DNA of 63,017 nucleotides, the filler included, from Reclinomonas americana ATCC 50394 (taxonomy: Eukaryota): NCBI GenBank assembly GCA_048213135.1. It is 7 parts of 2 records of this genome, joined end to end, with 100 filler letters (N's around TTAATTAATTAA, not from the genome) between each part and the next. Parts side by side here need not be neighbours in the genome. Positions count along the whole stretch, not along the records: positions 1 to 17,793 come from PS015093.1; 6 more parts are not named here. One strand, 5' to 3'. Below the pieces are notes generated by a model. It was given only the letters and a program-made list of their open reading frames with translations. It searched no databases and was not told where the DNA came from. Position 1 is the first letter of the stretch, and each line of letters opens with the position of its first letter. This document shows, in pieces, positions 14,587 to 17,500 of this stretch. The translations under genes were made by a program, and so were the position numbers.

Positions 14587-17500
14587 ACTCGCGGTCGCTG
14601 CGGCGCGTGGCCATCAAGATTCTGAAGAAATCCAAGTTGCGACGCATCAAGGTACGGCCGCACAGTCTCCAGCCACGCTCTCGCCTCTCTCTGTGTATTC
14701 ATTGTATCGGCGCGACAGGATGGCGAGGCGAGCGTGCAGCGCGAGATCGCCATCATGAAGAAGATCAGGCATGCGAACGTGATTGAGATGCTGGAGGTGT
14801 TGCACAATGAGGAGCGCGAGAAGCTGTTGCGTGCCTCTCTACCTTTCCCTCTTTGGGATCGCGCGCGCGTGCTCACCGTGCAACGCCGTCGCCGCCGCCA
14901 GGTACATTGTGCTGGAGCACGCAGGAGGTGGGTCTCTGCAGGGCAAGATCGACGCGGCGCCACAGAGGCGTCTCCCACTGGCCTCCGTACATCGCTACTT
15001 CCGGATGTTGATCGAGGGCCTCGAGTATCTGCACTCGCAGGGAATCGTGCACCGGGACATCAAGCCCGACAATCTGTTGTTGACGCTCGACGGCAACCTC
15101 AAGATCTCGGACTTTGGAGTGGCGGAGGTGAGGAAGGGAGAAGGAAGAAGAGGAGAGAAGAGAGAGAGAGAGAGAGAGAGAGGCGGAGGGTCGCTCATAC
15201 TCACACCACANNNNNNNNNNNNNNNNNNNNNNNNNNNNNNNNNNNNNNNNNNNNNNNNNNNNNNNNNNNNNNNNNNNNNNNNNNNNNNNNNNNNNNNNNN
15301 NNNNNNNNNNNNNNNNNNNNNNNNNNNNNNNNNNNNNNNNNNNNNNNNNNNNNNNNNNNNNNNNNNNNNNNNNNNNNNNNNNNNNNNNNNNNNNNNNNNN
15401 NNNNNNNNNNNNNNNNNNNNNNNNNNNNNNNNNNNNNNNNNNNNNNNNNNNNNNNNNNNNNNNNNNNNNNNNNNNNNNNNNNNNNNNNNNNNNNNNNNNN
15501 NNNNNNNNNNNNNNNNNNNNNNNNNNNNNNNNNNNNNNNNNNNNNNNNNNNNNNNNNNNNNNNNNNNNNNNNNNNNNNNNNNNNNNNNNNNNNNNNNNNN
15601 NNNNNNNNNNNNNNNNNNNNNNNNNNNNNNNNNNNNNNNNNNNNNNNNNNNNNNNNNNNNNNNNNNNNNNNNNNNNNNNNNNNNNNNNNNNNNNNNNNNN
15701 NNNNNNNNNNNNNNNNNNNNNNNNNNNNNNNNNNNNNNNNNNNNNNNNNNNNNNNNNNNNNNNNNNNNNNNNNNNNNNNNNNNNNNNNNNNNNNNNNNNN
15801 NNNNNNNNNNNNNNNNNNNNNNNNNNNNNNNNNNNNNNNNNNNNNNNNNNNNNNNNNNNNNNNNNNNNNNNNNNNNNNNNNNNNNNNNNNNNNNNNNNNN
15901 NNNNNNNNNNNNNNNNNNNNNNNNNNNNNNNNNNNNNNNNNNNNNNNNNNNNACGGAGTATGGGCAGTCCGGCTTTCCAGTCTCCCCAGATTGCCACCGT
16001 TGCGTCTCAACCCATCCATCCCATTCTCAACCCCGCCACTCACCCTTCTTCCTCTACCACACAGGGCTCCGCACGCTTCTCCGGCTACAAGCTGGACATT
16101 TGGGCTGCGGGCGTGACACTCTTCCTGATGGCCACTGGCGAGTTTCCATTCTCGGGCAGCAACATTTTCCACTTGCTGGAGAACATTGGCAAGGGCCAGT
16201 ACACGGTGCCCGACTTTGTCGATCCGGTGTTGGCGGACCTGATTCGTGGCATGCTCCAACTGGATGAGGAACCACGTCTGTCCATTCCACAAATCAAGAA
16301 GCACCCGTTGCGTTGCACCTGCGGCGACTGCAGTTAGTTCTCTGAGCCTCACCATCCCTTCTTATTCACGGCAGATGGTTCGTGGCTGAGATTCGCGACG
16401 TGGAAGACATTTCAGTGGAGCTGGTGGGCGAGGTGTCGGGATCGTCCTCGATGCTGCAGCAGGCGGCGCGATTGGTGGCGGCTCAGGAGGAGCCCGCCAT
16501 TGGGCCAGGCGTCGTGCGCATCTCCTACGATGGCGCGTCGTCGGTCAGCAGCACAGTGGACGCCAGCGGCGGTGTGATTCCGTACATTTCGACCATGGAT
16601 GCCGACGGCAACACCCAGCCGGCGTTGACACGACCCGTCTTCGCCACGGTGTTGTGGTCACGCTCCTCGCAATTCGCCTCGGGATCGGGCTCGTCTGCCC
16701 GACCCAATCTGAAGGACATGTTTGCCCCGCCTCCCGGTTCTTCCTCGTCATCATCATCGACGACGACGACGGCGACNNNNNNNNNNNNNNNNNNNNNNNN
16801 NNNNNNNNNNNNNNNNNNNNNNNNNNNNNNNNNNNNNNNNNNNNNNNNNNNNNNNNNNNNNNNNNNNNNNNNNNNNNNNNNNNNNNNNNNNNNNNNNNNN
16901 NNNNNNNNNNNNNNNNNNNNNNNNNNNNNNNNNNNNNNNNNNNNNNNNNNNNNNNNNNNNNNNNNNNNNNNNNNNNNNNNNNNNNNNNNNNNNNNNNNNN
17001 NNNNNNNNNNNNNNNNNNNNNNNNNNNNNNNNNNNNNNNNNNNNNNNNNNNNNNNNNNNNNNNNNNNNNNNNNNNNNNNNNNNNNNNNNNNNNNNNNNNN
17101 NNNNNNNNNNNNNNNNNNNNNNNNNNNNNNNNNNNNNNNNNNNNNNNNNNNNNNNNNNNNNNNNNNNNNNNNNNNNNNNNNNNNNNNNNNNNNNNNNNNN
17201 NNNNNNNNNNNNNNNNNNNNNNNNNNNNNNNNNNNNNNNNNNNNNNNNNNNNNNNNNNNNNNNNNNNNNNNNNNNNNNNNNNNNNNNNNNNNNNNNNNNN
17301 NNNNNNNNNNNNNNNNNNNNNNNNNNNNNNNNNNNNNNNNNNNNNNNNNNNNNNNNNNNNNNNNNNNNNNNNNNNNNNNNNNNNNNNNNNNNNNNNNNNN
17401 NNNNNNNNNNNNNGGCAACGGCGAACACGGTTGCAAACACGGCGAGTGCAGCCGCTGCAGCCGCAGCAGTCACCGCCGCCCACAGCGTACCTGTCAAACC

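Follow-up and report, generated by a model that had tools for sequence, protein, structure and literature searches.

Two registers of 5' splice site, sorted by the last exon base, in a 63-kb window of the Reclinomonas americana genome

Recognition of atypical human 5' splice sites by U1 small nuclear RNA (snRNA) in a register shifted by one base (+1) is established (Roca and Krainer 2009, as reported in the accessible part of PMC4856993). A second human arrangement, in which a nucleotide is bulged at +3 or +2, has also been described (Roca et al. 2012, as cited in the accessible parts of PMC4856993 and PMC9311317). A further line of work concerns the dependence of donors on a G at the last exon base (-1) or at intron position +5, and distinguishes 'left-handed' from 'right-handed' 5' splice sites, as far as the available text of the LUC7 paper (bioRxiv 10.1101/2022.12.07.519539) and the U5-exon paper (PMC8283771) goes. 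Here we describe the donor sites of a 63-kb stretch of GC-rich, gene-dense and intron-rich eukaryotic DNA from Reclinomonas americana (the window). Beside a canonical donor form, (G)|GTNNGT, in which the bar marks cleavage, the introns predicted in this window carry a second form, H|GTT(G/T)CGT, where H is any base other than G. In the second form the conserved downstream bases lie one position deeper in the intron, and the two forms are sorted according to whether the exon ends in G.

The second form resembles the human shifted-register sites in several respects. As those sites appear in the accessible text of PMC4856993, the GU is cut at its normal place and the U1 pairs are displaced one base inward, -1 G and +5 G are lacking and a G stands at +6; the test oligonucleotide in the same text carries A at -1, the base that is enriched here. 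What differs from the known shifted register is the scale, a dedicated consensus, near-exclusivity with an exon-end G, and a phase bias. The human sites are described there as atypical, whereas 30 of the 121 donors predicted in the window share a tight consensus of their own, GTT(G/T)CGT, are nearly exclusive with an exon-end G and are biased towards phase 2. The human bulge register, within the same partly available sources, likewise has an extra U after the GU and normal spacing beyond it, but leaves C9 of U1 open to a G at -1; here that G is found in 0 of 30 shifted donors and A is enriched instead. Left- and right-handed sites, in the portions of the two papers available, show a comparable trade-off between the exon and intron sides of the junction, with a stronger intron side where -1 G is missing. 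Unlike those sites, for which -1 G and +5 G can stand in for each other within a fixed register, the donors described here have -1 G accompanying +5 G, and its absence accompanies a one-base displacement. Full-text literature searches returned no paper that treats GTTGCGT, GUUGCGU or GTTGCG as a donor motif.

All counts refer to this one window and to introns predicted with a purpose-written parser together with homology. The parser is a dynamic-programming exon-intron model that scores codons by log-odds and makes GT...AG obligatory; at donors it models solely intron positions +3 to +9, and never an exon base. Version 1 was self-trained and returned 125 introns, but over-called GTTGCG, producing for example a false intron at 14636-14672 within an exon of an LKB1-like kinase gene and a wrong donor at 33725, and it is not the source of the main set. 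Version 2 adds an intron length term, a CTSAY branch term and capped signal scores; it yielded 121 introns in 25 genes and recovered the structures of the LKB1 and katanin genes. An intron length mode of 55-80 nucleotides (nt) emerged without any length prior, the branch motif CTCAC is enriched four-fold, and GTTGCG was the top donor hexamer (9/62) in the first iteration of version 2, which used no donor model. The introns reported for Plasmodiophora, with a mean of 55.7 nt and a ctgayk branch (PMC2483917), lend no support to a placement of this DNA in that genus. From the version 2 introns we took a high-confidence subset (45-140 nt, CTSAY branch motif, YAG acceptor).

Two donor classes are established in this set. 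Twenty introns have the trinucleotide CGT beginning at +4 and 24 have it beginning at +5, compared with only one to five introns for each other position up to +28; the registers are therefore discrete and two in number. Canonical donors are those with G at +5 (n=71), a further 34 have G at +6 only, and strict shifted donors are defined by the motif GTT(G/T)CG (n=30). The 34 donors with G at +6 only are closely specified: position +3 is T in 33 of them and +5 is C in 31, while +4 holds G or T and +7 is T in 26. Canonical donors vary more; their commonest base at +4 is C (31/71), and T occupies +6 in 46/71. Their +3 position is G in 45 donors, T in 21 and A in only 5, a profile not usually seen with a standard U1 5' end, and homology confirms G|GTTNGT donors at 33971 and 33680. 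The two classes are found together within single genes, with a median intron length of 66 nt each, and they have similar branch motifs (CTSAY in 21/30 shifted and 50/71 canonical introns) and acceptors (CAG in 25/30 and 59/71). One spliceosome reads two donor forms, and the second form is neither a repeat family nor a minor-spliceosome class. As a separate observation, the exon that follows a predicted intron begins with G in 32/71 canonical and 6/30 shifted cases (p=0.024). By hand tally this difference is absent among the homology-checked junctions (6/12 and 3/8), and it may be a phase effect or chance.

The last exon base separates the two classes almost completely. Among the 121 predicted introns, G stands at -1 in 55 of 71 canonical donors but in only three of the 34 with G at +6 only (Fisher test, p=1.4e-11), and none of these three has the main motif; against strict shifted donors the contrast becomes 55/71 to 0/30 (p=2.4e-14). 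The exclusivity holds in the high-confidence introns (34/42 canonical versus 0/21 shifted, p=1.6e-10), in the parse made without any donor model (19/32 versus 0/10, p=8.4e-4) and at the homology-checked junctions (12/12 versus 0/8, p=7.9e-6). The version 1 set gives 37/59 versus 3/42. Codon-position G content would lead us to expect 25.8 canonical donors with -1 G, where 55 are observed, and 8.57 strict shifted donors, where there are none (P=3e-5). Measured against a stricter baseline, the frequency of G before non-donor GTT (15.2-16.5%), the absence of G from the 30 shifted donors has a probability of 0.004-0.007. Exon end and register are thus sorted in both directions, beyond mere relaxation. 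At exons that end in a base other than G, 46 donors belong to one of the two classes, 30 of them strict shifted and 16 canonical, and 13 further non-G donors fall into neither class.

The bias can also be traced in unparsed sequence. GTTGCGT occurs 26 times on the two strands together, as against 1 copy of GTAGCGT, 5 of GTCGCGT and 12 of GTGGCGT; a G precedes just one of the 26 copies, of which 19 share the strand of a predicted gene, 2 run against it and 5 fall outside any predicted gene. When raw motifs are compared with their non-donor copies included, the association is diluted and weaker, with G before 46/176 canonical hexamers and 3/41 shifted heptamers (p=0.007). The first-pass annotation of this DNA had reported that 25 of 28 shifted donors follow a non-G base while unshifted donors mostly follow G, and had proposed a table of -1 G against G at +5 or +6 as the check; the strict counts of 0/30 and 55/71 agree with it, and the table gives the strong association on 121 predicted introns reported above. 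The five LKB1 donors that it listed read in the sequence exactly as it had written them. It had also warned that the rule is not absolute, naming G|GTTGCGT as a counter-example, and this form matches a probable donor at 5064. The segment concerned (4999-5064) has a coding score of -1.7, compared with +4.2 and +7.2 in its flanks, and only 2.2% of exon windows score lower. With this probable exception counted, -1 G occurs in 1/31 shifted donors.

Twenty junctions (12 canonical and 8 shifted) were positioned by profile coordinates or by homologue alignments; those described individually are listed in Table 1, along with the probable exception and an LKB1 donor whose acceptor is hidden. At the eight shifted junctions cleavage falls directly 5' of the GU, outside the canonical U1 register, and GT-AG cleavage at the listed bases is established. 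One LKB1 exon matched nine distant metagenome loci, three of which (L001-L003) hold complete LKB1-like open reading frames (ORFs). Aligned with these ORFs, the spliced LKB1 product has no gaps at any of its four complete junctions, and the Pkinase profile coordinates agree. GTTGCGT has 0 copies in all nine of these loci (identity 51% or less). Other junctions were examined without being counted as checked, at 42548 (66 nt, in frame, no stop, where read-through may occur), at 40591, at 34379 (which fits within 1-2 residues), at 49393, 27056 and 2585 (all three lacking a profile match that spans the junction) and at 22378; the first six are shifted, and -1 is a base other than G in all of them. 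Two side observations concern the same genes. The katanin intron at 34475-34540 (minus strand) has an odd donor, gcg|GTTATTCACT, without G at +5 or +6, and is backed by a 22-residue gap relative to homologue P0116. The 639-nt intron of the OPT transporter gene holds a second GTTGCGT at 41292, which could be a decoy, a nested donor or an alternative one.

Table 1. Introns and donors placed in the window (coordinates along the whole stretch; lower case, exon; upper case or token after the bar, intron; HSP, high-scoring segment pair)
Feature	Coordinates	Strand	Class	Donor	Placement
LKB1 intron	14652..14718	+	canonical	aag|GTACGG	Parser; junction gap-free against L001-L003 ORFs
LKB1 intron	14826..14901	+	shifted, phase 2	ct|GTTGCGT	Parser; junction gap-free against L001-L003; Pkinase profile 71 then 74
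LKB1 donor	15128..15210	+		gag|GTGAGG	Exon end at Pkinase profile 145, just past DFG; intron enters N run 15211-15952, acceptor hidden
LKB1 intron	15999..16064	+	shifted, phase 0	acc|GTTGCGT	Parser; junction gap-free against L001-L003
LKB1 intron	16307..16374	+	shifted, phase 2	cc|GTTGCGT	Parser; gap-free against L001-L003; exon end at Pkinase 260/263
DDI1-like gene intron	2153..2223	+	shifted	caa|GTTTCGTG	Asp_protease profile 42, then 44 beyond split codon
Katanin p60 intron	33791..33856	-	shifted	cga|GTTGCGTT	22-residue gap against P0116/P0117 equals 66-nt intron; AAA profile coordinates add up
Katanin intron	33909..33971	-	canonical (T at +3, G at +5)	cag|GTTTGTGA	21-residue gap against P0116/P0117 equals 63-nt intron
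Katanin intron	33460..33680	-	canonical	gag|GTTGGTTT	Contiguous HSPs; AAA profile 83 then 84
OPT transporter intron, 639 nt	40986..41624	-	shifted	ctc|GTTGCGCT	OPT profile ~504 then 506; P0001 residues 486 then 487
OPT intron	42000..42064	-	shifted	gga|GTTGCGTG	Acceptor 42000 by homology (parser, 41979); P0005 HSPs 42115-42059 and 41999-41970 contiguous
OPT intron	42116..42183	-	canonical	ttg|GTGCGTTC	tblastn HSPs of P0001, P0005 and P0025; parser donor 42187, 4 nt upstream, out of frame
OPT intron	45818..45889	-	shifted	att|GTTGCGTG	No parser gene here; tblastn HSPs of P0004, P0006 and P0025 flank both sides
Stealth-domain gene intron	27483..27553	+	canonical	gcg|GTGAGTGT	Stealth_CR2 profile 35 then 36
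Stealth-domain gene intron	27675..27739	+	canonical	cag|GTGTGTGT	Stealth_CR2 profile 75 then 77, split codon
Probable intron, 66 nt, in frame, stop-free	4999..5064	-	exceptional (-1 G)	cgg|GTTGCGTC	Acceptor CACAG; read as exon by parser

U12-type and GC-AG introns also form minority donor classes, each with its own consensus. The U12-type donor motif is RTATCCTT-like; no donor of this kind is found, and the branch motif, length and acceptors of the shifted introns are those of the canonical class. A GC-AG reading would move the cut to GTT|GC. Such a donor, 3 nt downstream, is excluded because it keeps the frame but adds one residue, and the alignments of LKB1 and katanin pass this point without a gap. 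An introner family was also considered; by inspection, with no clustering, the 28 short shifted introns share only their donor, branch and acceptor motifs.

A phase bias accompanies the choice of register and is likewise established. Phase 2 makes up 16/30 shifted introns and 11/71 canonical ones (p=1.8e-4), and 12/21 versus 8/42 in the high-confidence subset (p=0.004); these phases come from the parser, which assigned at least one wrongly (42064 is phase 0 by homology). In phase 2 the -1 position is the second base of a codon, where a G alters the amino acid, and the enrichment supports the view that shifted donors serve junctions that could not take a G without an amino-acid change. The suggestion that the shift frees codon choice at the junction is upheld to this extent. 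It is less well served by the phase-0 shifted donors, as in 6 of 7 a synonymous codon ending in G exists and is not used.

We consider U1 pairing shifted by +1 at the second donor class to be the best explanation of these patterns, and we give it an even chance of being right. We infer both that U1 reads these donors and that it does so in the +1 register. In the canonical form, C9 of U1 would pair with the exon-last G and C4 with the G at +5. At H|GTT(G/T)CGT cleavage would still fall before the GT, with the whole U1 helix lying one base deeper in the intron. The intron's own +1 G would then stand opposite C9 in place of the exonic G, the +2 U would be mismatched with C8, the +3 U would pair with A7 and the +6 G with C4, while the -1 base would face U10. 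Since -1 would face U10, an A is predicted there; A is indeed enriched at this position (14/30 strict shifted donors compared with 6.34 expected, P=1.4e-3), mirroring the A found at -2 of canonical donors (A 20/55, G 6/55). The tighter downstream bases of shifted donors fit a helix that offsets the mismatch at C8. The cleavage point would be set later by U6, U5 and Prp8 through the GU itself, as at the human shifted-register sites. Selection would then sort the introns: the canonical form would win wherever an exon-final G is allowed, and where the codon forbids G, chiefly in phase 2, the shifted form would be favoured together with a strict downstream TGCGT. On this pairing scheme 85 of the 101 donors in the two classes would have the G:C9 pair, through either -1 G or the shift.

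Pairing was scored against the human U1 5' end as printed in the accessible text of PMC4856993, which may not be that of R. americana. With this end, the +1 register scores best for 30/30 strict shifted donors. Counted by number of pairs, the shifted register is superior in 24 of the 34 donors whose G is at +6 only; where G is at +5, the canonical register is superior in 60/71. The first-pass annotation had proposed that the intron's +1 G takes the place of the -1 G, that the shift thereby compensates for the missing exonic G, and that U1 pairing should be compared in both registers. The one-base difference in register, with all 30 donors best at +1, fits the first of these proposals, and in the comparison the shifted register has the greater number of pairs in 24/34 donors with G at +6 only. 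For a human-type U1 end, however, the energies are marginal and weak in any register, and compensation is not demonstrated energetically (-2.2 versus -6.35 kcal/mol).

Several results weigh against a U1 helix displaced by one base. With the human-type U1 end, the best duplex averages -2.2 kcal/mol for shifted donors and -6.35 for canonical donors, and the gapless shifted register averages +2.1 kcal/mol, a marginal helix with two internal mismatches. The same end separates donors from decoy GT sites with an area under the curve (AUC) of 0.77 for the shifted class and 0.93 for the canonical class, and standard U1 does not account for the near-invariant C at +5. A canonical donor without -1 G makes as many U1 pairs as a shifted donor does, and the benefit of shifting is therefore not derivable from pairing alone. 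Nor do shifted donors at exon positions -2 and -3 clearly resemble canonical donors at -3 and -4. The gene models themselves also contain mistakes: checked against homologues, version 2 is mostly right, with errors in the OPT gene at a donor (42187, true 42183), at an acceptor (41979, true 42000) and in a wrong gene split at 41969.

Of the other readings, two stand level in our estimation and are both unlikely. According to the first, U1 and later U6 pair in their normal register with the extra U at +3 or +2 looped out, and the missing -1 G reflects evolutionary sorting, given that in the presence of -1 G the loss of one T yields an optimal site. Human sites with such a bulge at +3 or +2 have been described (accessible text of PMC4856993), the T at +3 is nearly invariant in our donors (33/34), and the catalytic stage must place G+1 and U+2 together with a deeper G-U, so that the extra base would have to be accommodated anyway. 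A bulge keeps C9 free, however, and -1 G would be expected as often as in the canonical class (55/71) rather than in 0/30 donors with A enriched (14/30). Moreover, a bulge brings no gain in pairing over H|GTNNGT, yet at non-G exon ends shifted donors exceed canonical ones by 30 to 16.

The second supposes a lineage-specific U1, with an altered 5' end or a second variant complementary to GUUGCGU, for instance with G at position 5 or A in place of C8; this too seems improbable. It draws on base preferences that are odd for a U1 end with two pseudouridines, namely a C in 31/34 shifted donors at +5 and in 31/71 canonical donors at +4, and an A at +3 in only 5/71 of the latter. Changing U1 in silico raises the AUC of shifted donors against decoys from 0.77 to about 0.93 with G at position 5 and to 0.99 with A at position 8, but this result is circular, the altered ends being the complement of the consensus. 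Canonical donors are already told apart well from decoys by the standard end (AUC 0.93), and the A8 variant alone lowers that value to 0.79-0.80, which would require two U1 species. The 5' end of U1 is, to our knowledge, nearly the same in all eukaryotes, which also counts against this reading. An Rfam scan of the 63-kb window gave 0 matches and no RNA gene, U1 included.

A quite unlikely third possibility dispenses with a shifted helix. A protein or another snRNA (U6, U5 or a LUC7-like factor) would recognise UGCGU independently of U1, with the exon-end G as a redundant alternative signal. The weakness of the shifted helix with standard U1 and the strict conservation of the downstream bases would both follow readily, and two classes of 5' splice site, weighted to either side of the junction, have been described in animals and plants (available text of bioRxiv 10.1101/2022.12.07.519539). 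Such recognition leaves unexplained why there are two positions exactly one base apart, why T is obligatory at +3 (33/34) and why A is enriched at -1. That the shifted donors are artefacts, whether mispredictions, chance copies of the motif or GC donors 3 nt downstream, with an association born of the parser or of base composition, is highly improbable: version 1 did over-call GTTGCG (false intron 14636-14672), G is already infrequent before non-donor GTT (15-17%) and raw motif counts reach only p=0.007, but the exon side was never modelled, the association persists without a donor model and at 20 homology-checked junctions, GTTGCGT favours the gene strand by 19 to 2 of 26 copies, gap-free alignments exclude the GC donor, and canonical -1 G (55/71) far exceeds the 25.8 expected.

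Pfam searches on ORF pieces of the window identified genes for a DDI1-like aspartyl protease, the LKB1-like kinase, a second kinase, an FkbM methyltransferase and a Stealth-domain protein, and further genes for katanin p60, an OPT transporter, an alcohol dehydrogenase, a DIRP protein and a HAD hydrolase; a homologue search with the 416-residue exon at 29326-30573 found no match, and none of the homology searches yielded a protein belonging to this genome. The intron-rich OPT gene (40381-45930, minus strand) has its best matches in bacterial OPT proteins (Nitrospira, Rickettsiella, Legionella), at 40-67% identity over 28-55% of a 182-residue query. Judged from these matches, it may descend from an old bacterial-to-eukaryote transfer, with its introns gained afterwards. 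The window contains 27 runs of N totalling 7,136 bases. At six places (17794-17893, 35543-35642, 39273-39372, 52008-52107, 55743-55842 and 59526-59625) exactly 44 N, 12 real bases and 44 N follow one another, a pattern that resembles masking and is unlike assembly gaps. The most abundant 7-mers by far are those of (GA)n/(CT)n, with 599 copies, and (GT)n/(AC)n, with 271; (GTAC)n is present too.

Returning to U1 pairing displaced by one base, we tentatively extend it, with rather less than even confidence, to a genome-wide two-register 5' splice-site code, in which roughly a quarter of introns would be read one base deeper by U1, the last exon base would dictate the choice and the G:C9 pair would be near obligatory. 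An altered U1 5' end, or an additional one, that pairs with the conserved C may go along with this code. If the proposal is true, R. americana would be the first organism, as far as our searches show, in which shifted-register recognition is a major and selected donor class. If it holds genome-wide, the introns of this organism would offer a large natural sample for how the spliceosome sets cleavage independently of the site of U1 pairing, a question approached so far through a few human sites and reporters. Gene finders that use a single donor matrix would blur the two registers and place exon ends off by a few bases, as our own parser did at 42187 (true donor 42183). More generally, a genome-wide code of this kind would reconcile intron signals with coding constraint, the intron-borne G sparing the exon the need to end in one.

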